64,000 nt of DNA from positions 32,001-96,000 of the IMG/VR virus record IMGVR_UViG_3300028048_000086; one strand, written 5' to 3'. Origin of the DNA: a virus. Its lineage: Duplodnaviria; Caudoviricetes. A model generated the notes under the pieces. The model did no database searches and was not told the origin of the DNA. It saw only the letters and a program-made list of their open reading frames with translations. Made by a program: the position numbers and the translations under genes. Below, piece by piece: positions 1-61,606 of the stretch (its first letter is position 1; the number at the start of each line of letters is the position of its first letter).

Positions 1-3000
1 TATAGCATTACGAAGAAAACGAGCACCGAAACCAGCAGCAATTTTCCCAACCGCACTTTCGGCTAATCGTTCCCCGGCTTTTTTGCCGGCCCATTTGGCA
101 CCGGCATCAACGTACTTTATCGGATTCGCTGACTTAACCGCTGAACCTGCCGCGCTCGCCGCTTTTCCTCCCATCTCTACGGCTTTCGTAGCCATCTTGC
201 TTTTTGCCGTGAGATTCTTCATAGCTTCTAGTCCGCGTTCAGGATAGAGAGCCTGCTTTAACTTAGAAGCCGCGTCAACAACGGGAGAGCTTCCGAAGAG
301 TCCCATCGCCGAAGCAAATTTCGCGACGGCTAATAAATGGACGGTAGCAAAACCAGCCGTCATATTAAACCAGGAAGCGATGATTTGCTCAAAGCGATCG
401 TCGACCGCGCAGATTAAATCAGGAGATACCGTAGTCGTGAATCCGTTTTCTACGGACATAGAATGAACAACTTCTTTTGCCGTACATTGGCCCGAGATGC
501 CTTCATACTCATCGCTGATATACATACGGTCATGTGGCTTTATCGTCGGATCTCCGAGGAGAACCATATCGCCGGCATACATCTCTTTCATGGAATCTTT
601 GAGAGCGGAAGCTGTCATACGCCAAGCGATAGACTTGTTGTTCATGTTATGACCGCCGGTAAGAGCTCCGTCTTCATCGTTGCCGACGATAGCATCTACT
701 GTCTCGAAAGACGTAAAGAAGTTTAATCCGGCGGCACCGACGAATGGAACGCCCTTGCCCAACAGCTGCGTATCCACAACCATAGATTTCTGGTCTTCTG
801 GATAGATATCATAGTCGGCATAAAGCGGGCCAACTGTATGCTGCTCTTTCGTATTCGCTGTCGCACAAACCTGATACAATCCAGTGGCTACGGTCTTCAT
901 CTTTTGAGAAGTTGCCGTGATGCCATTCGCGATAATATCAGATCCAGAAGTATAAATATGATATTGTTGAAATGGTTTGCGCTTTTCGAGAATTGCCCCG
1001 TTTGAATTTATGTAGGAATAAGCATAATAGAAACGAGGAGCGCCGATGAAGAGCGTAGACCGGAAATCGAACGGAGCTACTGCGCAGATGAAGTCAGGCA
1101 TAACACTCTTACAGATATTCGCGATATCCCAGACAGTCTTGCCGAAAACATCGAACGTAATTGATGGAGCCTTATCGATGCCTAACACGTTCGTGACATT
1201 ATCATCGCCCCAATTTGGACTAGCCCAAGCTTCAAAGATGTTCTGCATAGGTTCAGATGACTTTGAACTTGAACCAGAGCCAGAAATATCAGCCGAGGAT
1301 GCCATTGAGAAATCTTTATTTCCAAAATGATAGATACCATAAGGATTATCTCCGAGAATATCCGGGCGATCAAAACCGAATGGAAGATTCTTGAGAACGG
1401 TCGCGATCGCGCCGCCATTCGTCGTCAAGATATCATTCATAATCTGCTTCGGAGTCTCGCCGTTTGATAGCCAACCGCCACTCGAAGTAAGAGAGTGGGC
1501 TTCTTTCTTCTCTAAAATCGGATTCATGAGCTCGACACCATCGCCTTGGGCCACGATTTCAACGGTATCTTCCGCCGTAACTTCGGCGATAGAACCATTA
1601 AAGATAATCGGAAGCATCACGGCATTCGAACCATATCCAGCTCTTAAATGAATGCGGGCTCCGGCGCGAAGACGAAGTTTATCTGGCGGTGAAGCATTCT
1701 GGCGTTTCTTTTCCTGTTGCTCAGCATAGCTACTGGAGTCCTTCGCAAAATGATTATGCCACCCAGGGAAAAATACAGAATCAAACGTATCTCCGAGAGA
1801 GGCTTCTGATTTACGTAGGCGATCAATTCCTTCCGTCGCGTATGATTGGAAGTAATTCGTCAACGTAATCGTAGCCGTATCAGCCGGATTTTTACGATCT
1901 TTTACAACCGTAAACTTTAAGATATTCATGGAGTTATAGAAGTTATCGTGAAGTTTATAAGAACCGACATCTCTGCCTTCATCAACGAAAATCAGATAAT
2001 ACGTTGGGAATGCTCGGAGCATACGCCCACGAGCATCATGAACAATCATATCGTGGCAGGAATGAACCATAAACTTCTTCGGATCATCTGCTGCTTTAAT
2101 GTATAACTGTTCCGTTTCATTACGAGCATGCTGCACAGCCGGATCATTTTGCGAAACGCCGATCGTATCTTTGTTGTCGATATGACCAAGGCCAGTCATA
2201 GCCATCGTCATCTTGCGTAAGGCCATTGTCGGCTTGTCACCGGTAGAAATCTGGGAAGACGGAACCGCCGCGCCGCGAGAATATTCTTGAAGACCACGAT
2301 AATCACGATTGTCGATACGGTCAAGTATCATTTGGTTTCCGTCGCTTGAAGCTAGCACACTTGCTGTCCAAATTTTACCGGAATCCATCGTATCCGTATT
2401 CCGAGAGAAGAATTTGATGTGCTCTACTAGCTGAGCTTCTTTCTCTCCGACACGAAGTTTATTCGCTTCTTCTGTATTCGAAACCCCCTGCTGGGCTTTC
2501 GATGCTTTTCTCAAAATATCCGTTTTGATCGTAGGAATCGCGTGGCGATCAATTAGAACTTTGATCCAGTAAAGACAATTGCGTAAATAAGCATGCGTAC
2601 AGAATAGCGGATCACGAATGCATGCTAGTTTGTATGCAACGATCGTATCGACAGGCTGATAGCGATAGTAACGATCGAGAAGATAATAATTTGTGTTAAT
2701 GCGGGTAAGGTCATCATTCTTCTCCTTTTCTGTCCAAACATCACTCGGATTTTCTCCGGTCATTTTCATGAACTCGCTACGGGAATATTGCTTAATTTTG
2801 AAGCAGCCAAATTCCGTAGCATAAAAAGCACCGGCATCTGGAAGGTCTTCGTCCATCGTCGTCTCTGCTCTTGTCGTACCAGGAACATAACCGACGAAGC
2901 CCGGGGATGCCATCCAGTTCGTAGATTTTTTCTTACTGGAATATTCTTTTTCTCCCGTCGCGGCGCAGGCGGCGGAATAAACGATGTCTTTGACGGTTTT

Positions 3001-6000
3001 CAAGAAATTCGCGTTAACATCGATATTTATCAGATCCATGATCTGATGCACTTCAGATATATTGAAAAACTGCTCAACGCCGTTATAAATAGCGGTCTTG
3101 ACTAAGTCAAAGCACTTTTTGGTGTCTCCACCGTTCTTTTTCGCTGCCAGATATTGATTGCGGATAGCGTTATTGCTACTCCACATATCTACGACGATTG
3201 GTTCAGTTTTTAGATACGTCTCTATTTCACTAGAGGCTTCTCTCGCGTTTTCCAGTTGATCATGAACCCAAGCGCCTTCCGTAATCTTTTCTTGCGTTGA
3301 TTGCTGGCTATCATCAGTTGAAGAATCATCTGTGGCTTGCTTGGTATCCTGTTGTTGGGTGTTAGATTCGGCACCTTGCTGAACAGCATTCTGAATTGCT
3401 CTTTTTCTCTCATTCGCTTCGTACGCTTTGATTTCTTTCGTGTAATTAGGTTCGAGAAACATCGCCTTTACATCATTGCTAATTTCCCATCCTTCATACT
3501 CTTCAACAGCATTATAATTGCTATCTTTCTTTAGATTCTCGAGCGTCTTCTTAGCGTTGACAGTGTATTTAGCATTTTCACTGTTCTTCGCCATCTTTTC
3601 CTGATTTTTGGCAGCATCATTCATCGCTACGGCTTCATAGCCTTTTTGTTCCTGAGCTGTGAGTTTGTATTTAGCTCCCGTGGAATCCTTATAAGTTTTC
3701 GTACCGTCAATGCCGGCTTCGATAGATTCCATAATCGTATCGCGAAGAATCTGACTAGAAAGGCGTGCTAAATATACGAAGTAAAAATCAGGATCAACGT
3801 AGACACGGTTGTCTTGGAACTTATATCTGAGATAGGAATACCCGAGGGAGTTCATATCCTCCAAAGTTGGAAGTTCCAAATCAGGATACAGTTCTGCGTG
3901 AGCAAGAGTATTTTCAACTTCGAAGAAAGACTTCAATGTCTTCTCTTCAAAGTTACTATCCTTACGATCTCCGTTATTCCTAGCTTGAAGCATGGCCGTA
4001 GCTTCTCTTTGACGAAGCGTACGATCCATGGAACGCATGGAGAACGAAATATTATAAACGCCTGGCTGGCCCGGAATCGTATCTATTTGGACATCTGTAA
4101 TTGATACTTCTGTCGTACCGAAGAATCTCGTAAATTCAGAATCGACTTTGATAGGATAGCATGGAATTACCTGACGATATTGACGCATCATCAATGCTGA
4201 TAGCTTCGGCAAATTGCTGATAATACCGGCTGCTTTTTTACTCGACGTCATAATGCTGACATTGAAAACTGTGTCTTCGCCGCCGAGATATTGCGGAGCA
4301 CATCCTTTTGAATCCTGAAGAGAAATTGGATGACCATTTGCAGATGACATGTGGTTCATGATCTGTGCTGAATAATCCGTTATGTAAAAGACTCCAGCAT
4401 CGATAGGAATAAACGACATATTGTCCAGCTGGTCAATATTCGCTACTTTTCTCCATTGACTATTGCCAGAGTCATTGCCTTTGATTGAGTTGTTGTCATA
4501 TTTGTCTTTTGCATATGACAACAACTTCATATCATCTGTATCAGCTATCGGAGTAAAACTAGTTCCGGATCCATCCGCCGCGATAGAAATGCGCATCGGT
4601 ATAAAGATACGGCCATCTTTGTAAGTAGCTCCTTCCGTGCCACCAATAAATGCCGTAGCATTTTTCTGTACATCTTTAATAGCGTCTTCCGTAAGCGCAT
4701 GACCATCATCGTCATTGAAAGCTACGCAAGCGCCAATTTCAAAATACTTGTTTTGGCTATCATATCTTTCATATCCGCGCACGTTAGCATCCGGACACTG
4801 TTCTTTAATCGATGCTTTTAACGTAGATAGAGCTTCATCTACTTCATCGTGAACATCGTTGCCATCTGCATCACGGAGATCTCGCCATGAAGACATTCCA
4901 TGGTCTAAAAACGTCGTGGCATTTGTGTTTGCTTGCGGAGAAACTGGAATATAGTGAATGCCTCTACCGTCGAGTTTCTTGATCGCATTCTGAAAATCGT
5001 CACTGTTAATTGCAGCCTCGATTCCCTTGGCATTCTTACCGATAGTATTCATCGCTTTCGCGCCATCTTCGGAGTAATTAATGCCAAGCTGCTGCTCCTG
5101 CATCTTTTCTCTCTTAGCTTTGAGCATCTTATCAAGATATACAGGGTCAGCGACGTAGAACTTCATAGTGCTGTCTTTAAGAGGCATTGGCTGAAGCATT
5201 GTACGGTTTTCGAGAGTCTTTTTGAGATAACCCTTCGAATTAATTTCCAGTCCAGAATTCAGCAAGGCGTTGCCATTAATCAGTGCTCTCTGATAATAGT
5301 AACGCATAACCGGCCAGTTGAATGCCGCCGAGAATCCATTTATTTTCTTTCCTGTTTGAAGCTTGAAGAGAGCACAATCAGGGATATAGACGGCATAATC
5401 AAATTCCGTCATTGTGAGAGTTGCTTCGATTAATTGTGGGCCATTCGACGACACATTCTTGATAGCGATGGAATTCATAACAACGGCTTCAATTCCAAGC
5501 GTATCATTCAAATAATCGTTTTCGATCGGCAGAAATGGCGTGAACTTAAATTCCGAAACGAGAGCGCGAAGGCCATCCATATAGTAGACCATCTTTTTCC
5601 CGTTCGGAGCCTGTGCTTTATATTCCCAACCATTGATACCTTTATCTCCGCAAAAATAAATATGCATGGAAATTTCGCGCTCGATATTGCGGCCGCCCTT
5701 CGCCATCGTGCCACGAGCGCGGAGCATAGAGACACGTTCTTCTGATGTATGCGTCGTAACAGAAATCGACGTAGGAGGAACTAAGAAAGTAACATCACCG
5801 ATTGTTACCGTCCAATTTGTCAGTTCTGCCCAGTCTTTGCCGAAGATAGATTCCTGGATTTTCTTGCGATCATCCAGCTCTGAAGCCATAGAAAAATAAG
5901 CGTCAGCAAAAACCTGCTGGTCAGGATCATATTCTGTTTTGAAAGCTTCATTATTTCCGATATTTGAGTTATCCGGCTGCGCATGCGTTTCCGTATCCGC

Positions 6001-10300: not shown

Positions 10301-13300
10301 ATCATAGATACGATCTTCTCCATCCGTATAGAACTGATGAGCTTTAATCGTATCAACCAGAGATTGATCGATATTATCTCCGGCTTTTGTGCCTTTGACA
10401 AATCTCTCGTATAGTTCGTTACCTTTTTCTTCTCCGAGAGAATGAACAAGGCGTTGCTGAATCGTATTTACATAGTCTTCGTTGATTCTATTCGCGAAGA
10501 CGTTTGTCATAATACGCTCGTCAAGTTTCTCAGGCTTCTTGTTCTGACGAGCTGTATCCTTCGTCGTAATACGAAGCATATCTAGATTCTGGAGCTGCCC
10601 GCCACGAGACAATGCCGTATTCGAATATAGATATCTCTGACCGTATTTCTTGGCTTCTTCGTCATTCAGCCTCTGAACTTTTTCGAAAGAGTGAATCTCT
10701 CTTGCGTAGTCGTCTTTTCCTAAGAGCTCGTCTACGGTTTTTCCAGTACTAACTTCCTTTCCTTCCATATCGAATTTGCGATAATATCCGTTATCTAATT
10801 GCTCGATATAGCCGGTGACTTTCTTGCCGCCCTTTGATAGCTCGAAATACTTTTCAGGGCCTTCGCTCTTAAAGTATTTGTGAGCTATCTCATCGTACGC
10901 ATCCCAATCAATAGAACCGTGAGATAACGTAAACGTACCGGTTTTTTCATCAAGTTCAAGATCTGGGCGAACCTTCTTCATTTCACGAAGAATCTCTTGG
11001 TTCGACATGCCACGATCTTTCATAGCATAAAACATGCTTGAAAATGCGGTAGGATCTCCGTGCTTGATCTGTCCGGAGTAGTTGTTCATGACGCCCCAGA
11101 TATGCTGTCCTTCTTGCAGGGCACCGCTGGCCGTCATAACACGTTCGAGCAAGTCTGTCGCTCCATGCCGCTCCGTCATCATGGCATTCGCGAATTCTTC
11201 TATGCTGGAGAATGTTTTTCCAATCGTTTCCCGGATTCTCTTATCGTTCCAGCCACCATCAGTCATCGCATTGAGAGCGATACCGAACTTCGTCTTCGAG
11301 AGATCCTTCGGTGGATTCATCAGTTCCGTAATAAAGTCTGCCGTAACTTCTCTGCCAATTAGGTTCGTTGCCTTAAATTCCGTAAGGACTTTAGCGACTT
11401 TCCGATCTTTCTGCCCGAGACCGTTCATGATAACACGGCCCATCGTCTTCTCGTTATTATCCGAGACTTTGATGTTACCGGACATGTCCATGTCTTCGAG
11501 GAAGTAACGTGCTTTATATGTGTTGTTCGAATTGAAGAGATTCCAGACTCTTTCCTGCCAGCCTTCGCGGCTCGTATCAATCTTATCGAGATTCTCATTG
11601 ATGATTTCGCTGACTCGTTCATCCGACAGGCGCATACGATCCTGGAAGATTCCGAGGCGCAAGAATCCATTTGATTTTGCTAGAACAGGTTTTTCGCCTT
11701 CGTCGTAAGCGCCGAGAACGCTGAACAACTTTTCATCTTTTTTACGGAAGACACCGTTGTTAGAATGGAAATGAACGTTGCCTTCGCTATCAAGTTCGAG
11801 TTCCGGAGTAGCATCGCCGAGATTCGAGCGTTTCATAACAACGTCACGAGCATTGCTTTCAACGGCACGAACTTTATCGACATCTACCTGTTGCTCGTAA
11901 TAGCGATAGGATAGCATCGCATCAGCTGCACGAGAAGTAATTGCGCCAGCGCCTTCATCCGTCATAATTGAGGAAATGCGAGTAAATTCAGCGCTTTCTC
12001 TCGCTGATAGAGATAGAGCTAGAGCATTCGCGCCTTTATCGACGAGAATTTGAAAATCTCTCGTACTCGTAGAAAGACGCCTGCCGATAAACGAGTTTTC
12101 TACTTTATAGCCAATGCTTTTGCCAATTTCTTCGTTACGAGCAGACTCACCGACGGTGCGAATAAGATCTCCGGCCATGCCACCGATTGAATCAAGATAT
12201 TTCAGAGTATCTTCTGAAGCCCTGAAATAAGAAGCTCTCGCTTTCTTGTATTCGATGCCATTCGCACCAACATGGGCATTCTCACCGACATTCTGATTCT
12301 CTTGATAGATACGGTAGAAGCCCTTCGAAGAATGCGTTCCTAGATGACGAGTAAATCCGCGAATCTTGGAATAAACATCGGCATTCGGGCTGCCGTTATT
12401 AATAACTTCCTGTATTGCGTCTTCGAAGAGAGAACCGTGCTCTTGAATAGCAACGACCTGTGCCATCGTAAGATCGCTCAGACGTTTGCCGTCATAAAGC
12501 TCTGTTCCGTCTTTCATGTAAGCTTCATGGGATTTATCCATGAGCTCTTTCAGGATATTATCAGTATCTGAGCCAGTACCTTCGAATTCTTGGAAAGCCT
12601 TGGTATTTGAAAGTTCTCCCAGCTTCTGTACAATATCTCCTGCATAGAAAGATTGCGAAGTCAGGCGATCCTGCTTATTCTTGTCCAAGCTCGTAGAGAA
12701 ATCTCTCCACGTAGCGTTGAACTTGCTGAGAATATAATTGACACCGCCAAGAAGTTCGTTCTCGCCAGCTTTCCTTTCAAGAAAGTCTGTATGGAGAGAG
12801 GCCCCGACATTTCCGGCGGCCTTGCCCCATAATGAATTAACTTGGAGCTTCTTTTCACGGCTTCCTCTGTCGTAGAGGTTAAATAAACCGATAGGGTCTA
12901 CGCGACGAGTATTATTCTTGCCTTGGCGAATAAAGAACGCCCCGTCTTCATAGCGCTCCTTGGTGAAGAATAGCTCTTGAGACTTGCCAGCTTTAAAATC
13001 ATTGATACTGTTGTAGCCCCAGATTTTGCCAGTTTCTTCGTTGTAGCCGATGGCGCCGCCATTTTCATAGATTCCACGAACAAGATCGTGGACGACTTCG
13101 CGAGTATTTGCTCTCTTGATCTGTTGTCCTCTCTGCATGAGTTCAGCGCTCTCTTTCGAGTAGCCCTGAGCCATGAGATTCTTTACGAAGTCCTCGGAAT
13201 CTTCATGAGCGAACCCTGTATTGAATAGAATCTTATCTACGATATTATCGGCGATTTTATTCGTCGCGTTCTCGAATTTCTGCTTCGCAAGTTTCGGATT

Positions 13301-24966: not shown

Positions 24967-26719
24967 CGTAGATGTTCACCTCCATATCCAGCTGGTCGCG
25001 ATAGCACGATGCATCGCCAATATTATTGAATGCCGCGAAACCTGAACGATGATAGTCATTCAAGCTAATCGCTAGAACAACGCAAAGGGCATCTTGTGCT
25101 ACATTTACCGTTACGGCATGTCTGTAATCATCAGAGCGATAGAATCTCTTCGTCACCGTTCTCGATGATGTGTCGTACTTAATAGCGCATATCTCGTATG
25201 GAACGTCTTGGTCGTAGAACGCGACTTCGCCCTCGGAGTATTTTAGTATCGGCATTTTGTCGAAGAACTGACGAGTATAATTGAACTGTTTCATCCACTG
25301 ATCGTGAATAAAGAAGATTGTGTTGTCGATGTCATTCGACAGTTCTTGGTGCTGAAGAATCTCGAAAATGGCCTTGTCTCGAATATCTTGCATCGTAAGA
25401 TCATAGTCATGAGACAAGTTGGTGATGATATCTGAAACGGTATTGTATAGATTTCCCGCGCCGAATACCCGCTGGAAGCTCTGAAGAAAGCTCTTTGCGT
25501 AAGATAGATTCTCTACCAATTGGCGCTTCTTTCGATAATCGTCGATATCTCCCCGGATATCGAAACGAGCAAATTTCGATATAATCTTGCCATCAGCATC
25601 TTTGATATATAACAAGATTTCGTCATCGATAAAGTCTGAACGAGTATCGATCGTCATAACTCTCTTGTTGATCTTATAGCGGCAATCGTACGTAACGTTC
25701 TCGAAGAGATCTGTCTCGCAAAGCGCCAGATAAAAGTCTTTTCTCGAACTAGCGAAGAAATCATAATCTGGAATCGTAACATGAATCACGCGGTCGTCCA
25801 GATTGTCTCTCTTCACCGTGACACGATCTATGATATAATCTACCGGCTCTTTCTGTGTTTCAATGACGATGCGGGACTTGTCATCCTGTGTCAATTCAAT
25901 ATCCAAGTACGATAGCTCCGTATCATCGATAGAGTTTTCAATTTCAATATCGCGAGAAAGCCCTGAATAGGATTCCCATAGGAATTTGGATCCTTCCTCA
26001 TCCATTTGATAATGGATAAGTTCGAGAGCCATTTCCCCCTGAATGTAGAAATCCAGCAGATAGTATGTGTCTGGCGTCAAGCTCGGATAGAAGTCTTCAT
26101 CAATTCCTCTCGTAGTTACATATACTTTTTCTCCGTCTTCGATTTTGAAGACATTTACGCTCGTAAAACCGGAAAACGGAGTTATGCTGAAACGTGCCGC
26201 ATAATGAATAGAAACATCCGGGCAGTTTCTTTTATTGCATGACATCGATACAATATTTTCGTACTGCTCCGATGCTAGAATCAGTTGATAGAAGCTTTTT
26301 CTTTCGAACTCCTGAATATTTTTCACTTCATGAAAAGCTTTTACCAGTGAGTAAGTATATCCATCATTCGCATCTCGAATTTCGGCGATTACTTTCTTCA
26401 TGTAATCTTCGTCGATAGGGGAGACGATGCGAGAATATATTTTCTCGTAAGTTTCGCTGTCTTTCTCAAGAGAAACATATGCTTCAATTTTTGCGGAACT
26501 GCCTTCTCCTGATGTCATCCAGAAAGAATAGAATCCTGCTCCTTCTGGAAAGCTTCTTATAATTGTTCGGTTCGACGCTACAGCAGCGGCATGAATCTCG
26601 TCATTGCCATTCTTCTGATACATAACAGAATTATATCCGACGTCCCATCCGTCTGTCCGGAAGCATAAGCCTCTTTCTCTCTGCCATAAAAGCGCTAGCG
26701 GCGCGTAAGATCTTCTCAT
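24959..26719 (-). CDS. Hypothetical protein in the tail cluster (586 aa)
   Basis: Long ORF overlapping both neighbours; no recognised motif. Confidence 0.6.
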   Translation of the reverse strand: MRRSYAPLALLWQRERGLCFRTDGWDVGYNSVMYQKNGNDEIHAAAVASNRTIIRSFPEGAGFYSFWMTSGEGSSAKIEAYVSLEKDSETYEKIYSRIVSPIDEDYMKKVIAEIRDANDGYTYSLVKAFHEVKNIQEFERKSFYQLILASEQYENIVSMSCNKRNCPDVSIHYAARFSITPFSGFTSVNVFKIEDGEKVYVTTRGIDEDFYPSLTPDTYYLLDFYIQGEMALELIHYQMDEEGSKFLWESYSGLSRDIEIENSIDDTELSYLDIELTQDDKSRIVIETQKEPVDYIIDRVTVKRDNLDDRVIHVTIPDYDFFASSRKDFYLALCETDLFENVTYDCRYKINKRVMTIDTRSDFIDDEILLYIKDADGKIISKFARFDIRGDIDDYRKKRQLVENLSYAKSFLQSFQRVFGAGNLYNTVSDIITNLSHDYDLTMQDIRDKAIFEILQHQELSNDIDNTIFFIHDQWMKQFNYTRQFFDKMPILKYSEGEVAFYDQDVPYEICAIKYDTSSRTVTKRFYRSDDYRHAVTVNVAQDALCVVLAISLNDYHRSGFAAFNNIGDASCYRDQLDMEVNIYDG

Positions 26720-27774
26720 TCTTTCTTTTCACGCTCTCTTTCATCATAGTATTCTCGAGTCTTTGAGAAAGCGTAGTTGTAAGCTGCTCTGATCTTTTCT
26801 TTTCTATGCTCGTATCTATCTTTCTGTATCAGGCCGCTCTTATAATCTTTTTCGTTCTCATTGTCAAACCAAGCTTTTTTATCGCTGAGCTTTTTATTGA
26901 AATCTTCCCGAGTCGAATCCTGTAGTTCTCTTACGTCTAACGGAAAATCGGAAACGTATGGATTCGAGCTATCATACTCTTTAGAAATTCCCGTGATAGA
27001 TAAGTTGTAGTCATCATCGCTTGATTTTACCTCACCACTATCTTTTTTTACTGGGTTATCAATGGGAGTATTATCGTTAACGTTATTGTTTACAGGGATA
27101 TCGTTTATGGATAGCGGGCGATTGACACCAGCGCGATTTCCGTCCGTGACATTCGACAAATAATCTACATCCTTCGCGAAGAACTCAAACGTATTTTCAG
27201 TGTACATGTCCTGCACACTCATAACCTGTCCTTCTGATACAAAAGAAACACCGTAGATTGCCAAGCGAGAGCTACTGCCGTATTCGTTGCTCATTGAAAT
27301 CGTAACATTAATCGGCGGAATCTCGTCTATCAAAACATGAGATTTATTGCTAACAGCATTCAGGTATTCGTCCATCATAGACTGAGCCCAGTGACGATCG
27401 AATACCGTAAAAATCATTTTACCGGCAACCATGCGATTGCTGAAGACATAACTCTTGTAATTCATGTCTCCGAGAACGCGAACTGGCATTTTCTGGTTAT
27501 ACAAGGAATATGATATCGTCTGCATCTCTCCGACGACCTTCGTAATGCTCTTTCCGCTCACCAACGGAAGTTCGAAGATGCAGATCATATCGTTGCCAGA
27601 GTAGCTCGTATAAGTACGAGTATACGCAGAAGCTACTGTTCCACCATATCCTTGAGATTTTGCCGATACTCCGCTCGTGTATGCTTTTTTATTTTCTTGA
27701 GCCGTATAAGCAGGAGAATCCACTTTCGGCTTGTCTACTATATTCAATGGAGAATCCCTCCGTTTTATACGCAC
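26716..27774 (-). CDS. Tail tube-like protein (paralog 2) with C-terminal extension
   Basis: YTRTYTSYSG.D...GEMQTISY...VAGKMIFTVFDR...DEIPPINVTISMSNEYG closely parallels the spliced tube protein; true start may be TTG at about 27747. Confidence 0.7.
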   Translation of the reverse strand: MRIKRRDSPLNIVDKPKVDSPAYTAQENKKAYTSGVSAKSQGYGGTVASAYTRTYTSYSGNDMICIFELPLVSGKSITKVVGEMQTISYSLYNQKMPVRVLGDMNYKSYVFSNRMVAGKMIFTVFDRHWAQSMMDEYLNAVSNKSHVLIDEIPPINVTISMSNEYGSSSRLAIYGVSFVSEGQVMSVQDMYTENTFEFFAKDVDYLSNVTDGNRAGVNRPLSINDIPVNNNVNDNTPIDNPVKKDSGEVKSSDDDYNLSITGISKEYDSSNPYVSDFPLDVRELQDSTREDFNKKLSDKKAWFDNENEKDYKSGLIQKDRYEHRKEKIRAAYNYAFSKTREYYDEREREKKE

Positions 27775-27775
27775 G

Positions 27776-27814
27776 AAAAAAGAGAGTGAGTTAATTTTTT
27801 AATTCACTCTCTTT
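27776..27814 (-). terminator. Terminator after the tail tube gene
   Basis: AAAGAGAGTGA...TCACTCTCTTT inverted repeat with flanking A-run. Confidence 0.6.
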
Positions 27815-27841: not shown

Positions 27842-29936
27842 TTACTGGACGGCGCTCTCGCGCTCGATCGGCTTCATGTACTCGACGCGACGAGCAACGA
27901 ACGTGCAGGCTTTCTCCGAGATGACATTGTCGATAGAAAAACCGCTCTGCTCGTTCAGGATTTCAACAGCGTAAAGAACGATTGAAGCCTTCTGGCCATA
28001 TTCATTCGCGAACGAGATCGTGATATCGAACGGCGGAATTTCATCGGCGTACTTCGGCATAGCGACACTCGAGATATTTTTCGCACGCGTCTCGGCTGCC
28101 TTCTGCATACCAGCATCCGTATTCGTATCGTTAGAACCGACGCCATTATTCGCGATACTCGTCATGTTCTTATCCCATTCATCGATGGAGAGACGAGCAT
28201 ACTCGTTAGCATTTTCGTTATCTCCGCCGATACGATGGAACGACTTTTCTTTTCTGACGTGATCAGCTAGACCAGCGACAAGAGCATCACGGTCGAAAAT
28301 TGTGAACACAAGAGAGCCCGCGACGCCACGTTTGCCACGAGAGAACGAACGAGGCTCTGCACTACCCATAGTATAGCATTTATTGGACTATGCCTTTGGC
28401 AGCTCAAAGAGCTGCGTGTCTCGCATATTAGCAATAAAATCAGAATCTTTTATATGCAGTCGATAATACTTATGTGTTCCTTTATTGTGAAAAACAGGTG
28501 TCGAATTAACATCAAGAAGATGCTGAATTCGTTTACACCACGCAAGTGTTCGATTGCTATCAGCTATTGGCATGATTTCATTTCTTTCATCGAGAACGGT
28601 ATGCGAAACATATAGAAGTTCTTGATCTTGATTGTCAAATGTGTTATTATCGAGAACATATTTTTTATATAGCTCATGCTTTCTGGATAAGCAACAGTCG
28701 TCTATGTCTCCATGATATAGCCACCAAATAATCAATCTTGCGAGATTTCCTTCCCACAGAATTTCCCAGACATTATTTTGTGGTACCCATCTTGGCGCTT
28801 TTGGAGGAAGCATAAGAGTGTCAACAAGCGTATCACATACCCAATCAGTGATCTCTTTCTTCTCGTCTATAAAACCAAATCTTACCGCGTTTCTTGAAGC
28901 ACGATATGAAATGGTGCCATCGCCATCGACACATCCACGAATAAAATCTCGTTCATAGCCTTTTATCGCTTCTACAGGAACTCTTTCTTTGATATCTGAA
29001 AATTCATCGATAATGTCCCTGCGATCGTAAACACGAATTTTGGGTTGTGGAGATTTATACTCGGAATAATCATGAACAACGGCTTTAATTCCGAGAATTG
29101 CTTTTACCTTATGCATCAATTCCCTGTCAGCGTATTTACAGATAAACTGCATATGCGTTTCATCACCTTTTCCTCGATATGAAGGATGTGTAATGGCGCC
29201 ATCTGACAGAAGATAACCTAAAAACCATGCCATTTTGCTATTCAATTTTGATTTCTCCTTTATATCCACCTATAGGGGATTGGAATATTGCTAGGACCTC
29301 TTCAGGTCGAGTCTCTACGGGCTTTGATACTTTATGTATCTTACCCTCGGCGTTGGGTGCTAACCGTTCACCGATTTGAGCGAGATTTTATGCCAGCCTA
29401 CACTTATTAGGCAACCGGCGCTTTTTCCTTTTCTTTTAGATAGTTCGTTAAGCTATCTACTGCATCATATGCAGCTCGAGATTTCAATCTCGATGAGGAG
29501 ACTATTTCTTCACCATGCCGCTTACGCGGTTTAGGGCGACCCATTTCGAAAGCACTTGCTTTCTATGGCTATTTCAAGCCTTAGTCGTTTGACCTTCCTG
29601 TTTCCAGGCTTGGCGACCAAACATCCCTTGTTAGCAGCTTTTAGACTTGCGTCATGAGCTATCTTCATCGTTGTTTCTGGATTTCTCCACCATCAACAAG
29701 GTTTCTATCTATCCTTGTTTGTGGTGATGAAGCTCTTAAGGAGTTACTGGTTTTAAGGTCGTGTCCCTGCACGGTTTCCCGTACAGCGGAGAATAAAATG
29801 CTTTTTATAGCGTTTCTCTTTGAACGTGATAGGTAATAGCTTGCAGCTCTCCGATGACGGTATCACCGAAAGTAGCTACGATGTCGCATCCTGAAAACGA
29901 CGTATAAGTACGCGTGTAGCTAGAAGATATTGACAT
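27842..29936 (-). CDS. Major tail tube protein, three exons: 29936-~29816, ~29426-29414, 28376-27842 (222 aa after splicing)
   Basis: ATG 29936 with AGGAGG RBS directly after the sheath gene. Joined exons read MSISSSYTRTYTSFSGCD...ELQAITYHVQRE-KAPV-YTMGSAEPRSFSRGKRG; 669 nt, in frame, collinear with paralog 26716-27774. Confidence 0.85.
28377..29413 (-). mobile_element. Group I intron 2 in the tail tube gene (1037 nt), carrying a homing endonuclease
   Basis: 5' exon GCCGGU pairs with IGS GCUGGC (U-G at the splice site); IGS GUGUAG pairs with 3' exon CUAUAC (P10); R-like GUAGAGACU and S-like AAGGCAUAGUCC; terminal G at 28377. Confidence 0.88.
28388..29269 (-). CDS. Intron-encoded double-motif LAGLIDADG homing endonuclease
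   Basis: WFLGYLLSDG and FIRGCVDGDG motifs; AT-rich; likely start is TTG at 29245 after AAGGAG. Confidence 0.85.
   Translation of the reverse strand: MDIKEKSKLNSKMAWFLGYLLSDGAITHPSYRGKGDETHMQFICKYADRELMHKVKAILGIKAVVHDYSEYKSPQPKIRVYDRRDIIDEFSDIKERVPVEAIKGYERDFIRGCVDGDGTISYRASRNAVRFGFIDEKKEITDWVCDTLVDTLMLPPKAPRWVPQNNVWEILWEGNLARLIIWWLYHGDIDDCCLSRKHELYKKYVLDNNTFDNQDQELLYVSHTVLDERNEIMPIADSNRTLAWCKRIQHLLDVNSTPVFHNKGTHKYYRLHIKDSDFIANMRDTQLFELPKA
29427..29815 (-). ncRNA. Group I intron 1 in the tail tube gene (~389 nt, no ORF); boundaries uncertain by a few nt
   Basis: R element GAAGGUCAAACGACUA and S element GAAGAAAUAGUCU (P7 GACUA/UAGUC); P3 CGACC/GGUCG; several P9 hairpins; interrupts the QRE|KAP motif. 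Confidence 0.85.
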
Positions 29937-57451: not shown

Positions 57452-59611
57452 ATGTCGAACATCAATGAAATCGCCGATGTCCAGGAATCGGCCTACCGCG
57501 TTGTTGCGTGGGAGGCGAAGAAGTTCAACAATCCGTCCATCGAGGCGGATTATGAGAAGCTTGCAAAGATGCGCGGCAAGCTCGCTCCAACCACGACGCT
57601 CGTCACGAGTGATCAGGTAGAGGAGCTTATTACTCCGTACCTGCTCGCTAACCGTGTCTCCGTGGATACGGATGACGAAGGGCGTGAAATCGTCTCCGAT
57701 GATGCATCGGATGACGATGCCAAGGCTACGGGCCAGCTCGTAGCCACGAAGCTGTACCTGGATAAAGATGCCCATGTCCAGCGTACGCTGGCTCCTATCC
57801 CGTATAACCGTGTATCCCGCTATCTTCCGAAAGAAGAAGCGACGGTTCATACGGGAACAGGCGAGTTCGTTACGCGTGTAAGCAATTACACGCAGTTCTA
57901 CCTGGTCTTCCAGCTTACGGGAGCTGATGATCAGTATGTGCTCGACCGCGAGATCTACCGTAAGGTAGGCACGGACGAATTCTATTGGGAGAACGAGTTC
58001 GATCAGCTCGTTAATATCGTCACGGGGGAGCTCGCGACGATTGACGAGCTGGGAGAATGCCTCGTGTATAACTCCCGTAAGATGCCTGGTCAGGAAAATC
58101 TGACGGCAGGCGAGAAGAAGAGCTACACGATTCAGTTCGTGTGCTCGAACTTCGGAAACATCAATGTCCGTGCGTTGAAATACGTGCTGACGTACGGTGC
58201 ATCCGAGCTTCTGGCCGCGACGCCGAAGACGAGCCAGAAGGATCTGGCTCAGAAGAGCAACCGTTTGGCGCAGTACATGGCTCCGAATACTTCGGGGACA
58301 TTCTTGCATAACGTTTGCTTTTTCATGGGCAAGATCAAGGACGATGACGGCAACGAGTACCGTGACGGCTTCGCTTTCGTCTTGGACGAAGCGGTGCGCC
58401 ATTGCTTCGTTGTCTTGAGCAAGGGCATGTTCGCGATCTCTAAGAAAGCTTGCCAGGGCCTGGCCATCCAGATGCGTCCGTGGCTCTGCAAGCTGGAGAG
58501 CGAGTCGGTATCCGAGGGATACATGGCTCGCTTCCTGGAACTGCGTCATGCTCTCGAAAATGCCGTGTTCGTGTACAGGGACGCGGTGACGGAAGAACAG
58601 CAGGAAGCGTTCAACGAGGCTCTTGAAAGCAAGGGCAAGAAGGGCGCTTTCGCCGGCAAGTTCGTTTTCATCGCTGATCATGAAGGTGATTGGGATGAGA
58701 ACGAAGTTCCAGAGTTCTTCACGGATATCAATGGCCTGAAGGCAGAGTTCGATCTGAAGATGGGATCTACCTTCAATATCTTGTCGATGAGTCATCATAA
58801 GTCGCACAAGAACGGTGCTCACTTGAGCACGCAGCTTGTGCAGTCGATGATGATCTTCGATTACGAAGCCACGAAGAAAGTCGTCGCTCGTCATATGGAG
58901 GCGTACGTCGCCGACAAGTTTGGCGAGCTGATGAACGGCACGGGCAAGACGCCGACCGTTCAGGATGTCGAGGGTTCGCTGAAGGGACAGCTTCTCGCGA
59001 AGCTCTGCCCGGCGGTAACGACAAAGTACTATTTCCCGCTTCTCCGTTCAATTTCGAACAAGACGATGGAGGGAATGGTGCGTGTCGCCAATAACCTGAG
59101 CATCCCGACTGAGGGGGCGTACCAGAAGCTCATGGTGGATCCCGCCATGGACTTCGGCGTACGCATCTTGAACGTCACGAAAGACGCGACGAGCAATGGC
59201 ATCCTCGAGGTGCTGGCTCCGACCGTCGAAGTGACGTGCCGCGGCATTATCGTTAAGTATCCGAAGCAGCACTTCGGAGAATACGGTAAATGCCATGTCG
59301 TCTCCGTCGCTGATTATATCGCTCGTGTCAAAGCGTGCGATGAACTCAGCGAAAATGACAAAGCACTCCTCATCGAGAAGGTTCGTCGCCTCTCGAAGGG
59401 AGTGCTTTGCGTGCCGGCAGTCGCCGAAGTCAAAAACATGCTTGCGGGCATGGATTTTGACGGTGACGCGGTCATCCTGTTCCTTGATAGCGGTGTCGTT
59501 GCCGTGATGTGGAAAGGCGTTCCCATCGCTGTCTGCATCGACGAGAACGACGCTGGCATGCTCTCGGAAGAAGAGTATGCTGCTTATAAGGAGCAGATCT
59601 CGAAGAAGTAA
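57452..59611 (+). CDS. YonO/RdRP-like two-barrel RNA polymerase, N-terminal catalytic part
   Basis: RDGFAFV, IQMRPWLCK, LSTQLVQSM, VKYP, LAGMDFDGDAV (DFDGD at 59453-59467) in the order expected for YonO/QDE-1-like enzymes. Confidence 0.8.
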   Translation: MSNINEIADVQESAYRVVAWEAKKFNNPSIEADYEKLAKMRGKLAPTTTLVTSDQVEELITPYLLANRVSVDTDDEGREIVSDDASDDDAKATGQLVATKLYLDKDAHVQRTLAPIPYNRVSRYLPKEEATVHTGTGEFVTRVSNYTQFYLVFQLTGADDQYVLDREIYRKVGTDEFYWENEFDQLVNIVTGELATIDELGECLVYNSRKMPGQENLTAGEKKSYTIQFVCSNFGNINVRALKYVLTYGASELLAATPKTSQKDLAQKSNRLAQYMAPNTSGTFLHNVCFFMGKIKDDDGNEYRDGFAFVLDEAVRHCFVVLSKGMFAISKKACQGLAIQMRPWLCKLESESVSEGYMARFLELRHALENAVFVYRDAVTEEQQEAFNEALESKGKKGAFAGKFVFIADHEGDWDENEVPEFFTDINGLKAEFDLKMGSTFNILSMSHHKSHKNGAHLSTQLVQSMMIFDYEATKKVVARHMEAYVADKFGELMNGTGKTPTVQDVEGSLKGQLLAKLCPAVTTKYYFPLLRSISNKTMEGMVRVANNLSIPTEGAYQKLMVDPAMDFGVRILNVTKDATSNGILEVLAPTVEVTCRGIIVKYPKQHFGEYGKCHVVSVADYIARVKACDELSENDKALLIEKVRRLSKGVLCVPAVAEVKNMLAGMDFDGDAVILFLDSGVVAVMWKGVPIAVCIDENDAGMLSEEEYAAYKEQISKK

Positions 59612-59692
59612 TTCTATCGAGATACTGATATGTTAACACTGTTAAGGGGGGGCGTCAAGCCCCCCTATCCATGTTATAAGGAGGAATTTATC

Positions 59693-61606
59693 ATGGATAA
59701 CGAAAACAAAGAGCTGCTCGGTCTCAACCTCGGTCACGATGACTTCATCAATGCGTTGGTGAATAAAAATCCTGGTCCTGGCCAGGTCATCAATGCTCAT
59801 CGCATTTTCGCGGCTATTTACGCGATGGCTGACGAGGAACCCAAAGCTGCTAAAATGGCGCTGGATAAGATCTTCGGCATCGGGAAGCGCGGTGAGCATT
59901 ACGTCTCGCCGATTCCACCGATGGTCGTGCGCGAGAATCTCACGATCAAGAACGTGAGTTTCTCGATGGTCCACGAGGCCGTCGAATCGGCACGCAAGGC
60001 TGAATTCTCCTCCGTGGAAGAGATGAAGTCTTGCGCCGATGACTTCACGACATTCGCGAGAATGTTCAGTGAAGCAGTCATTGATGCTGCTAAGAAAGGT
60101 GGCATCGTGCCAATCGAGTACATCGATGCGCTCCGTTCAGCTGTCAAGCCGGAAAGCCTTCTTCATACGGAGAAGTCTTTCAATGCCGAGATCAACTGGA
60201 TGACGGATAAACCCGCTCGTAAGGGCTGGGTCCGTCATCAGGATTCGAAAGCGAAGGGTGCGGTTGATGTCCTCTGCCAGCAGAAAGGTAAGAATCCTTA
60301 CCGTTTCGTCGCCAAGGAAAACAGCACACAGCTCGTGCTCGAAGATCCTTGGCATGAGCTTAGCGTCGATTGCTTGAATAAGGCAGTTGATGGTTACGCG
60401 GCGAAAGTTACGGAACTGGAGCCGCATCTGTTCTCGTATTTCGTAAAGGCGGTCGCTGATCGTCGTGCGGAAGATATGAACTTCGATGCTGTCTGTGTCA
60501 TCGCGTCCAAGCTCTGGGCACAGATGAACCGCACGATCACGTCCAGCATGACGGCAGAGAAATCCGCCATCGAGACGACGGACAAGGATCAGAAACGCGC
60601 CGAGGAACGTGCGATCACGGCTCGCTATCGTGAGACGTATAACGCTCTCGGCAACGAGATTCGCCGTCAGTTCGGCCTTTTGAAGTCGAATGATATGACG
60701 GAAATGGCTATGGTTAACGCCGTAGTTAACGCCGCGTATCATGACGAGGAAGGTAAGCTCCTCGACGATGTTTCCGCAACCAACTTCGCGGATAACGTCA
60801 TCGGCGAAGAGTTCTTCTCCTGGCTGAAGAAGCACCTTCTTCATAAAAAGGAGAATGTCACTGAGGAGGCTGTCGAGCCGCTGATCGGCTGTGACTTCGA
60901 AGAAGGATCCGAGATCGTATTCAAAGATTCTTTCGCGGAGAAAGACGGTCATTACGCCATGGCGGAACGTCCGAACGTCAATGGCTCGTATGTCATCAAG
61001 AAAGTTGGTGGCAAATGGGCGGCTACGAAGAAGATCGATGATATCGTCGAGTCATCGATTGACTTCGTAGAGAATCAGGTCATGTTCATGACCTCTTCTA
61101 CGTCGGAAACGGAAGAACGTCTCGTCGCGATGGCGAAGGCGGCTTCCGTGAAAGGCGCGAAAGTCACCTTGGTTCACAATACTAAGGTGAATGGCGTCCG
61201 TCAGGCTATCTTCGTTGATGGCAAAGCGTATGGCCGTTATGCCAATGCTTACGCTGATCTTTCCAAGAAGAAGGATCGTGAAGCAGCGAAGAAGCTCGGT
61301 CTCGTCATGGACAATGTCTACGATCTCGTTCAGGGTGACCTGAAGGATATCAAGATGATGTCCTATCCGGACGAACATGGCCGTAAGCATGCGAAAGCCG
61401 TCGTCGTTCTCGAGAACGTGACGAAGATTGCGTGGAACAAGGTTCCGAAGTTCAATGGTTGGGTTCCGGTCGAAAAGAAAGTAGTTAAAACGGCGAAAAC
61501 CGTTAAGACGAATTTCTTCGCGGCTAAGAAGCCGGTCGTAAAAGAAGAGCCGAAGAAAGCTGCTAAGAGCGATAAGCTCGTCAGCTTCTTCGCCAAGTAT
61601 CACTAA
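59693..61606 (+). CDS. YonO/RdRP-like RNA polymerase, C-terminal part
   Basis: Own AAGGAGG RBS and ATG 59693; PGQVIN and FSEAVIDAAKKG correspond to the post-catalytic IG..xN and AVDxxKtG motifs. Confidence 0.7.
   Translation: MDNENKELLGLNLGHDDFINALVNKNPGPGQVINAHRIFAAIYAMADEEPKAAKMALDKIFGIGKRGEHYVSPIPPMVVRENLTIKNVSFSMVHEAVESARKAEFSSVEEMKSCADDFTTFARMFSEAVIDAAKKGGIVPIEYIDALRSAVKPESLLHTEKSFNAEINWMTDKPARKGWVRHQDSKAKGAVDVLCQQKGKNPYRFVAKENSTQLVLEDPWHELSVDCLNKAVDGYAAKVTELEPHLFSYFVKAVADRRAEDMNFDAVCVIASKLWAQMNRTITSSMTAEKSAIETTDKDQKRAEERAITARYRETYNALGNEIRRQFGLLKSNDMTEMAMVNAVVNAAYHDEEGKLLDDVSATNFADNVIGEEFFSWLKKHLLHKKENVTEEAVEPLIGCDFEEGSEIVFKDSFAEKDGHYAMAERPNVNGSYVIKKVGGKWAATKKIDDIVESSIDFVENQVMFMTSSTSETEERLVAMAKAASVKGAKVTLVHNTKVNGVRQAIFVDGKAYGRYANAYADLSKKKDREAAKKLGLVMDNVYDLVQGDLKDIKMMSYPDEHGRKHAKAVVVLENVTKIAWNKVPKFNGWVPVEKKVVKTAKTVKTNFFAAKKPVVKEEPKKAAKSDKLVSFFAKYH

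Follow-up and report, generated by a model that had tools for sequence, protein, structure and literature searches.

A phage tail tube gene predicted to be split by two unrelated group I introns around a 13-nt micro-exon, and the first intron's G-C 5′ splice site

Fungal mitochondrial cox1 genes contain exons of a few to about 20 nt between group I introns with LAGLIDADG genes; these introns are organellar, often maturase-dependent, and do not belong to phages. In Staphylococcus phage Twort, the tail tube gene orf142 has three group I introns and an internal exon of 23 nt (PMC10136302; PMC11878797, citing Landthaler and Shub 1999). In Bastillevirinae, a small exon lies between two introns of the phiNIT1 ribonucleotide reductase gene and exon skipping is known from the SIOphi terminase; the introns are IA2- or IA3-like, many contain endonuclease ORFs, and their splicing was shown by experiment (PMC11878797). 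For prophages of the Bacillus cereus group, Tourasse and Kolsto (2008, PMC2504315) report group I introns in the genes for tail tube, tape measure and terminase; these are described as inserted after U, as virtually all group I introns are according to the same paper. In the 23S rRNA gene of Coxiella burnetii, two group I introns surround a 34-nt exon, and exon skipping was observed (cited in PMC10136302).

The tail tube gene analysed here is located in a 64,000-nt stretch of viral DNA, hereafter the window (IMG/VR record IMGVR_UViG_3300028048_000086, positions 32,001 to 96,000). The gene and all features given below are on the minus strand. Judged from the sequence, two group I introns, independent and unrelated, very probably split it at sites 13 bp from each other, and both must be removed to obtain a protein of 222 aa.

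Gene layout and predicted product

The tail tube gene starts with ATG at 29936, with an AAGGAGG ribosome-binding site upstream. Exon 1 (29936-29816) starts with M1 and holds just one base of the E41 codon, the first, which is its last base G29816; its translation, MSISSSYTRTYTSFSGCDIVATFGDTVIGELQAITYHVQR(E), matches the N-termini of homologs. It ends with ...ITYHVQR-E, and reading on into intron A (29815-29427; 389 nt, without ORF, group I, IA-like, terminal G29427) meets an in-frame TAA three codons later. The micro-exon AAAAAGCGCCGGT (29426-29414, 13 nt) follows; as AAAAAGCGCCGGU, it encodes (E)-K-A-P-(V), i.e. the last two bases of Glu, the codons for Lys, Ala and Pro, and the first two bases of Val. 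Intron B spans 29413-28377 (1037 nt). It is group I and IA-like, lacks P2, has a 3′ tail that is short and a terminal G28377, and again meets an in-frame TAA, two codons inside. Exon 3 (28376-27842) contributes the third Val base and continues with YTMGSAEPR... to the TAA stop at 27842. Together the exons comprise 121 + 13 + 535 nt = 669 nt, equivalent to 222 aa plus stop, and the spliced reading across the junctions is ...HVQRE-KAPV-YTMGS.... The junctions of the predicted mRNA are CAAAGAG^AAAAAGCGCCGGU^CUAUACU, and the junction-spanning peptide of the predicted product is APVYTMGSAEPR. Every element lies where the initial annotation had put it, with the two intron lengths and the micro-exon at 29426-29414 that it had given. 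It had also stated that gene callers give only a truncated ORF of 175 aa, and this is indeed the longest uninterrupted ORF of the gene (27842-28369).

A probable intrinsic terminator was read from the sequence 3′ of the gene (27776-27812; 9-bp stem followed by a T run); chance hairpin matches from Rfam fall on the same stem. An intron was also considered as the cause of the RNA polymerase split at 57452-61606 and was rejected, the gap there being 18 nt.

The three-part layout is not a product of chance, as judged by three observations. In PHROG 9206, exon 1 corresponds to profile positions 14-52 and exon 3 to positions from 59 on; the six-residue gap that this leaves is filled by KAPV, the four residues that exons 1 and 3 lack between them and the micro-exon provides, and YT. 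Alignment to intron-less homologs recovered the expected REKAPxY motif: more than 25 of them read REKAP[VI]YTMGS, and KAP[VI] is kept in all homologs. In the diverged phage L017, the same 13-mer, with 12/13 bases identical, lies between two introns (L017:2746-2758). Both introns sit in that part of the tail tube gene which is conserved best.

Against the tail tube proteins encoded by 0305phi8-36-like phages and by related viral contigs, exon 3 shows 38-72% identity; for the predicted tube protein, identity is 38-46% with gp140 of 0305phi8-36 and with the tail tube protein of KLEB27-3. By homology, the gene after the tail sheath gene is assigned to the tail tube of a jumbo myovirus that has a relative in Bacillus phage 0305phi8-36, because its homologs are annotated as tail tube, gp140 is so annotated and was detected in virions by mass spectrometry, and the sheath gene is directly upstream. 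A PDB sequence search with the tube protein gave nothing significant. The predicted structure of an intron-less homolog was of low confidence (pLDDT 55); most of the top Foldseek matches to this model were tube or Hcp proteins, though weak ones (best E 8.5e-3). A tail tube paralog is present downstream (27774-26716), and the collinearity of the 222-aa product with this paralog, as claimed before, holds and extends to the homologs.

Two unrelated group I introns 13 bp apart

The whole window gave no Rfam match at the gathering threshold. The Infernal-type check against the group I intron model, proposed at the outset, gave 37.2 bits for the intron A ortholog of L017 (RF00028, E 6e-6); within the window, intron A matched RF00028 at only 14.4 bits (E 0.3-1.7; below the gathering score of 50 bits) and intron B had no RF00028 match at E up to 10. 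Other introns of the tail tube gene in relatives reach the gathering score (90.8, 87, 75.1 and 50 bits).

For intron A, the family alignment (A2) comprised 70 pairs, with 95% of cells paired and compensatory changes in 44 of the pairs, a level reached in 0/500 shuffles; in slid controls, 30-42% were paired. Helices P2, P3, P5 with its extensions, P7.2, P8 and P9.2 covary, and P4 and P7 (GACUA/UAGUC) are invariant. A conserved core is present: it has P3-P8 and the P3/P7 pseudoknot, P7 contains the G-C pair for guanosine binding, and J6/7 and J8/7 follow the consensus. J6/7 and the P7 5′ strand, GGUCAAACGACUA (29582-29594), hold the G of the guanosine-binding pair and are invariant in the family; this P7 strand pairs with UAGUC at 29499-29511, where J8/7 and the P7 3′ strand, GAAGAAAUAGUCU, were located by the family alignment. 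The extra helix P7.1/P7.2 of subgroup IA covaries (alignment columns 280-301). All family members listed end in G, as intron A does with G29427, L048 being an outlier: its site is 2 nt away in reading frame, and keeping the protein precludes an end in G. In five genes, the family occupies seven insertion sites or more; it occurs in genes for the tail tube, the tape measure protein and terminase, and also in major tail genes. In L045, an intron of this family occupies another site of the tail tube gene, and the contig stops within the intron.

For intron B, an alignment of three sequences gave 50 pairs, with 93.8% paired (30-42% in slid controls) and compensatory change in 14 of the pairs. In these three sequences, the P3-P8 core helices and the P7 guanosine-binding site are present, and compensatory change was found in P3 (CUCGC/GCGAG, CUUGC/GCAAG, CCUGC/GCAGG), P4, P6a, P7.1 and P8; P7.1, the extra helix of subgroup IA, covaries in alignment columns 160-173. 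The 3′ core (28385-28426) contains the P3 3′ strand GCGAG, the P8 hairpin, J8/7 and the P7 3′ strand AAAGGCAUAGUCC. The copy of intron B in L014 has no terminal G. The internal guide sequence (29392-29403) consists of GUGUAG, the 5′ half, which forms a 6-bp P10 with CUAUAC of exon 3, and directly after it GCUGGC, the 3′ half, which forms P1 with GCCGGU of the micro-exon; the splice-site U.G pair is U29414-G29397. Compensatory changes in the P1 and P10 guide pairings were found in four loci, compensatory guide versions at this site being CACCGCU/GGCGGUG in L011, CCGAU/GUCGG in L042 and CCGGU/GCCGG in L017.

The LAGLIDADG ORF reported for the second intron was confirmed as a putative homing endonuclease ORF (29245-28388; 285 aa, TTG start, AAAGGAG upstream) with two motifs in one chain, FLGYLLSDG and FIRGCVDGDG, and a match to the PHROG 4645 endonuclease (E 7e-16). 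Pfam scores were just below the cut-off for LAGLIDADG_3 (21.5 bits, cut-off 22.5) and lower for LAGLIDADG_2 (16.2, cut-off 25); a PDB sequence search gave nothing significant, the only match being a homing endonuclease (E 0.59). The protein is 55% identical to an ORF in L011 and 48% to one in L014, both at the same insertion site. The ORF sits between P7.1 and the P3 3′ strand, and its stop codon lies within J8/7, just 5′ of the P7 3′ strand. With its 858 nt, the ORF splits the intron B core.

The initial annotation had called the introns twins. This did not hold: an nhmmer profile of intron A found no second copy in the window or the 118-kb genome and no likeness to intron B. With blastn against phage records, only the exons matched, and no annotated relatives of either intron were returned. 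In relatives, site A alone is occupied in five loci (L008, L009, L053, L054, L059) and site B alone in two (L011, L042); in L017 both are occupied, by a homologous intron A and an unrelated intron at site B. It had further been suggested that one endonuclease may mobilise both introns. Co-conversion is possible; a shared endonuclease is not needed, as each intron occurs alone in relatives and the intron A copies in L008 and L053 carry a LAGLIDADG gene of their own. In relatives, the tail tube gene is cut into up to five pieces, and several intron families use the conserved hairpin of the tube protein, at six insertion sites or more. This hot spot would be a good system for the study of homing-site competition and co-conversion.

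The 5′ splice site of intron A

The initial annotation missed that no canonical U.G pair marks the 5′ splice site of intron A. The internal guide sequence UUCUCCG (29787-29793) is located immediately 5′ of P2. In P1, its bases C29789, U29790 and C29791 pair with G29818, A29817 and G29816 of the exon, and U29792 and U29793 pair first with A29815 and A29814 of the intron and then, as P10, with A29426 and A29425 of the micro-exon. The same P1 register was found in 11 family members, with covariation GAG/CUC, GGG/CCC and AGG/CUU. At the cut, G29816 is paired to C29791, and this G-C pair is invariant in the 11 members. P10 is present but short (2-5 bp), being AA/UU here, CA/UG in L047 and L051, and AAUG/CAUU in L052.

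Intron-less alleles in L061 and L064, 97-99% identical to intron-bearing copies, read GGACAGGG^CAACATT, so the insert is U...AAUG. Intron-less terminases retain GTKGQA, which fits the GGG^U junction alone. Three alternatives with canonical junctions were considered for the family, namely an exon ending in the U or A paired to position -6 of the guide, a 3′ splice site that lies 4-10 nt more downstream, and an intron end one base after the G. All were rejected because L057 would gain a stop codon or the terminase would lose an invariant Q, and because L061 and L064 fix the insert as U...G.

At the locus itself, the A-run also permits a micro-exon of 14 nt, with intron A at 29816-29428, exon 1 ending at A29817 and G29428 as the terminal G; a G precedes both junctions, and the protein and ligated mRNA would be identical. 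This reading is unlikely: in L047, L051 and L057, whose junctions are unambiguous, it is the final base of the exon that pairs with guide C(-5), and a shift of those junctions by one loses the terminal G. Family homology thus favours a cut after G29816 and a micro-exon of 13 nt.

In PMC2504315, the U.G pair is regarded as critical for selecting the 5′ splice site, and intron A can therefore not be assumed to self-splice efficiently. A search of the literature for phage group I introns with a described 5′ splice site other than U gave no relevant result. The gene could be crippled, intron A being unable to splice and the downstream paralog supplying the tube, which would agree with the non-canonical splice site and the presence of the paralog. 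We regard this as very improbable: introns of the same family also interrupt terminase, tape measure and major tail genes on many long contigs, core helices and P1 show compensatory change, both paralogs of 0305phi8-36 are virion proteins, and the micro-exon retains its frame and sequence in a phage with a tube protein of only 60% identity. We lean, by a modest degree, towards introns with a G-C 5′ splice site still being spliced accurately out of essential genes. More speculatively, the terminal G of the exon could enter the guanosine-binding site, so that the first step would need no free guanosine.

Splicing model and comparison with known systems

We infer self-splicing, the order of splicing and endonuclease activity from these features; among metagenome contigs, none had an exact match to the spliced junction (41 nt). 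The first 2-6 nt of the micro-exon would supply P10 of intron A and its last 6 nt P1 of intron B; this dual use had been proposed before, and guide pairings were found at both ends. The intron A guide would pair three exon bases, with G-C at the cut, its next base pairing initially with the first base of the intron and afterwards with that of the micro-exon (P10). It had been argued that sharing the micro-exon could force a splicing order. As P10 of intron A and P1 of intron B use separate ends, no order is forced. Intron A would be complete about 1 kb of transcription earlier than intron B and so probably splices first, which would leave intron B with an ordinary long 5′ exon. The intron B endonuclease presumably drives spread into intron-less alleles.

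Exon skipping had likewise been raised. For two introns that act as one unit, with exon 1 joined straight to exon 3, there is a precedent in Twort orf142, where closely spaced group I introns are reported to skip an exon in part of the transcripts (PMC10136302, PMC11878797). Here it is hardly credible. The skipped product CAAAGAG^CUAUAC is out of frame, KAP[VI] is retained by all homologs, introns A and B share no sequence, and the cross-pairings are weak, with -2.5 kcal/mol for exon 1 and the intron B guide and -1.2 kcal/mol for exon 3 and the intron A guide, vs -10.0 and -6.5 kcal/mol for the cognate pairings of intron B.

If both introns splice as predicted, the 13-nt micro-exon would be an RNA read by both a canonical and a non-canonical ribozyme, and would show that two ribozymes can make do with very little exon between them, some 2-6 nt pairing in P10 of intron A and 6 nt in P1 of intron B. 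If it self-splices, the intron A family, whose guide has C in place of the usual G, would provide a naturally occurring exception to U.G as the mark of the 5′ splice site. Unless gene models include introns, annotation will go wrong for tail tube, tape measure and terminase genes in this group of phages.

The arrangement is that of Twort orf142 on a smaller scale; what is unusual about it is the G-C 5′ splice site. The locus resembles Twort orf142 in that several IA-type introns are packed around a very short exon of a phage tail tube gene. In Twort, introns 2 and 3 are near-copies and skip the exon, whereas the introns here are unrelated and skipping would shift the frame; the exon has 13 nt instead of 23 nt, and a LAGLIDADG gene is present in one intron and a G-C splice site in the other. 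With the Coxiella arrangement, it shares a short exon lying between two group I introns of different subgroups; there, however, the gene is a bacterial rRNA gene, the exon is longer and skipping was seen. The 13-nt exon is shorter than both the 23-nt exon of Twort and the 34-nt exon of Coxiella. In contrast to the Bastillevirinae introns, found in genes of DNA metabolism and packaging, the introns predicted here lie in a structural gene. The introns of the Bacillus cereus group are similar in gene classes, host phylum, stop codons just inside the introns, and homing endonuclease genes in peripheral loops; unlike these, the intron A family inserts after G, and a 13-nt exon is not described in PMC2504315.

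Layout of the tail tube gene and homologs of its junction

The tail tube gene starts at ATG 29936 on the minus strand, behind an AAGGAGG site and immediately 3' of a 978-aa gene matching tail sheath (PHROG 16991, E 2e-57). The exon 1 frame reads MSISSSYTRTYTSFSGCDIVATFGDTVIGELQAITYHVQRE, followed by TAA after three codons, and the exon 3 frame, (V)YTMGSAEPRSFSRGKRGVAGSLVF..., runs from 28376 to the TAA at 27842. Between them lies the 13-mer AAAAAGCGCCGGT (29426–29414, minus strand), preceded by 389 nt without a meaningful ORF (intron A, 29815–29427) and followed by 1037 nt with a 285-aa ORF, 29245–28388 (intron B, 29413–28377). As the initial annotation had stated, gene callers see a truncated protein of 175 aa, the longest visible ORF being 27842–28369. 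Exon 1 matched positions 14–52 of PHROG 9206 and exon 3 matched from position 59, so that six residues are absent, namely KAPV from the 13-mer and YT just 5' of the internal ATG.

The protein family corresponds to the tail tube protein of 0305phi8-36-like jumbo myoviruses (0305phi8-36 being a Bacillus phage); members include the KLEB27-3 "tail tube protein" and 0305phi8-36 gp140, annotated as tail tube and identified as a virion protein by mass spectrometry. The homolog of Moorella phage MTATph1 is uninterrupted (...TVTREKAPIYTMGSPEPRSF), and when five homologs from phages were aligned together with the paralog in the window, exactly KAP[VI] was missing between exons 1 and 3. Related viral-contig loci were uninterrupted at this point in 28 of 37 cases, reading REK[AV]Px[YF]T[MLF]GS, and the related loci L007 and L010 carry the predicted junction nearly letter for letter (ITYHVQREKAP[IV]YTMGS). 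Homologs thus keep the REKAPxY motif, whose absence had been named as evidence against the double splice, and this reading was not refuted.

The downstream tube paralog (26716–27774, minus strand, 352 aa) contains no intron and has a long charged C-terminal extension absent from other paralogs. The MTATph1 record (OR602862.1; locus L004, 2351–2983) starts the tube gene at the internal ATG (CDS0020, L004:2501–2983) under the name 'major head protein'; an open frame extends a further 150 nt 5' to a GTG and includes the conserved N-terminus. The same label is found in PHROG 9206 and RefSeq NC_009760, and the GenBank record of 0305phi8-36 gives tail tube. Two adjacent ORFs at 57452–61606 (plus strand) are separated by a gap of 18 nt (59611 to 59630), hence no intron lies between them.

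Structure of the two introns and the 5' splice site of intron A

Intron B was classed as a canonical group I intron, with a homing endonuclease gene inside it. Its guide sequence (29403–29392, minus strand; 5'-GUGUAG followed by GCUGGC) forms six pairs with exon 3 (CUAUAC, duplex −6.5 kcal/mol) and six with the micro-exon end (GCCGGU, −10.0 kcal/mol), with U29414.G at the splice site; the last intron base is G28377. The junction codon varies among phages (GU, CU, AU) and the guide of the intron at this site (site B, between APx and Y) varies in step, with compensatory pairings in the related loci L011 (CACCGCU/GGCGGUG), L042 (CCGAU/GUCGG) and L017 (CCGGU/GCCGG). The window's intron was aligned with those of L011 and L014, a further related locus, in a structure of P1, P10, P3, P4, P5, P6, P6a, P7, P7.1 and P8. 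Across the three sequences 93.8% of cells were paired, versus 30–42% with partners slid, and 14 pairs showed two-sided change (0–3 in slid controls); these values were reached by 0 of 500 shuffles. P3 reads CUCGC/GCGAG, CUUGC/GCAAG and CCUGC/GCAGG. The ORF (29245–28388, minus strand) lies between P7.1 and the P3 3' strand, with its stop in J8/7, immediately before the P7 3' strand; it has a TTG start behind AAAGGAG, two LAGLIDADG motifs, a PHROG 4645 match (E 7e-16), a Pfam score just under the cut-off, and 55% and 48% identity to the same-site ORFs of L011 and L014, respectively. Rfam returned no match on intron B, as expected from a core split by 858 nt. The tape-measure gene of L071 (IMGVR_UViG_3300031867_001386, 1–1500) contains an intron with a P4–P6 region like intron B's (CGGUGAA...AACGCCGAGGGUAA), which suggests that this family also uses other genes.

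Intron A was classified as a group I intron within a wider mobile family. On RF00028 it scored only 14.4 bits and its ortholog in L017 37.2 bits (E 6e-6); other introns of the tail tube gene in relatives reach the gathering score (90.8, 87, 75.1 and 50 bits). The aligned layout comprises P2, P3, P4–P6, the J6/7-P7 element GGUCAAACGACUA, extra helices between P7 and P3', P8, the J8/7-P7 element GAAGAAAUAGUCU and P9 hairpins. Combined into a search pattern, the J6/7-P7 and J8/7-P7 elements matched 16 viral-contig loci. Nine ORF-less members from five genes aligned well; on the RNAalifold structure with P7 added, 95.1% of cells were paired versus 30–42% in slid controls. Two-sided changes with pairing kept were seen at 44 of 70 pairs versus 7–17, and 0 of 500 shuffles reached these values. 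In the related loci L008 and L053, intron A carries a different LAGLIDADG gene in the P1 loop.

The mature sequence AGA-GAA-AAA-GCG and an intron-terminal G permit only two intron A junctions, after G29816 or A29817, neither of which is U. In all family members the guide directly precedes P2 (UUCUCCG in the window, 29793–29787). In 11 members with known exons the P1 register is identical, exon −3/−2/−1 facing guide −3/−4/−5, in the versions GAG/CUC, GGG/CCC and AGG/CUU (CUG/CAG, read by hand, in the viral-contig locus L056), and exon position −1 is always G, facing C. Guide −6 (U; or G or A) pairs both with the base that opens the intron (A or U) and, as P10, with the first 3'-exon base. For members with U at +1, a canonical U.G reading would place this U opposite G as the last exon base; it was ruled out by two independent checks, both of which make the U an intron base. 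The intron-less alleles L061 and L064, 97–99% identical to the intron-bearing L047/L060 type, read GGACAGGG^CAACATT, so that the insert is U...AAUG; splicing after the U would leave one extra base, and the frame would then stop 39 codons on. In terminases without the intron the motif is GTKGQ[AS][KR]L, and the interrupted terminase genes L051 and L057 can encode GTKGQAKL only with GGG spliced to CAAGC; if the U were kept in the exon, L057 would acquire a stop codon or the invariant Q would be lost. The intron A family would therefore insert after G, with C in place of the wobble G of other group I introns. This predicted G-C 5' splice site is the more surprising result and is well supported at the DNA level; a limited literature search found no described exception of this kind (a non-U 5' exon end). 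By homology, the window's junction is placed after G29816, giving a micro-exon of 13 nt, not 14. In the tail tube gene of L048 (IMGVR_UViG_3300045988_164211) a family A intron lies 2 nt upstream in frame, between ACGAG and AAAC, where no terminal G is possible if the REK motif and the protein are kept, yet P10 is excellent, with five pairs (AGAAA/UUUCU); this copy could be an assembly error, defective or a real exception. Junction placement is also uncertain for the L046 and L049 tape-measure genes, and neither this nor the L048 copy agrees fully with the family pattern.

Intron occupancy, splicing order and mobility

Occupancy was determined by tblastn of an intron-less protein against interrupted loci, after which junctions were read. 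Site A (between RE and K) is occupied and site B empty in L008, L009, L053 and L054/L059, with no other introns listed; L011 and L042 have site B only, L042 with a further intron after SRG and probably one more downstream. L017, whose tube protein shares about 60% identity with that of the window, carries a homolog of intron A, an unrelated ORF-less site-B intron of 348 nt and a third after SRG, before K; the 13-mer AAAAAGCACCGGT lies between the first two. The orthologous gene in L014 (IMGVR_UViG_3300028591_000168, 1679–4261) has four introns, after SGCD, TYH (in place of site A), APV (site B) and KRG, with internal exons of about 57, 23 and 52 nt. In L016, L026 and L045, introns are at further sites, neither A nor B being listed. 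The conserved beta-hairpin region is a hot spot for introns, and the window's arrangement amounts to two independent insertions, not a composite element. The L014 copy of intron B has no G before its 3' exon, yet P10 (AUAU/GUAU) points to that junction. Tandem family A introns occur in L052 (~11250–11700, tape-measure gene) and L056 (~5000–5400), the intervening exons being about 41 and 52 nt long; close spacing of introns is therefore common among these phages.

The micro-exon had been proposed to serve both P10 of intron A and P1 of intron B, and both pairings were found on its bases. P10 uses A29426 and A29425 plus up to three pairs past an A.A mismatch (−2.7 kcal/mol), and P1 uses 29419–29414; one or two bases separate the helices, so that nothing in the pairing imposes the splicing order that had also been suggested. 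Simultaneous docking of two ribozyme cores on 13 nt seems sterically unlikely. Transcription would reach intron B's 3' core (28426–28377) only about 1 kb after completing intron A and the micro-exon, so intron A could finish first, leaving intron B an ordinary long 5' exon. Exon skipping, likewise raised initially, would give an out-of-frame product; the introns have no sequence in common and cross-pairings are weak, and skipping is unlikely to matter here. Read-through of unspliced RNA is precluded by in-frame TAA codons three codons into intron A and two into intron B.

The intron B enzyme is independent of intron A, since orthologs occupy the same site in L011, which lacks intron A, and in L014, whose upstream intron is a different one, 23 nt off. 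Judging from the known properties of LAGLIDADG enzymes, a recognition site of some 20 bp with the insertion point in its middle would fall nearly entirely in the micro-exon and exon 3, and alleles with and without intron A may both be targets. When such a target is repaired from this donor, intron A, 13 bp away, would be expected to be transferred as well. Mobilisation of both introns by one endonuclease is thus possible, and not required, the ORF-less intron A being found alone in L059.

Comparison with known systems

For the Twort tail tube gene orf142, PMC10136302 and PMC11878797 describe several group I introns, a 23-nt internal exon and exon skipping, the latter involving two near-identical introns (PMC10136302), whereas introns A and B share no sequence. 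Prophages of the Bacillus cereus group have introns in tail tube, tape measure and terminase genes (PMC2504315), and the phiNIT1 ribonucleotide reductase gene has a small exon between two introns (PMC11878797). The basic arrangement, a short exon between close group I introns, is therefore already known; the window's 13 nt, against 23 nt in Twort, is the shortest found in the limited literature consulted, and the micro-exon arrangement recurs in two diverged phages, the window's and L017.
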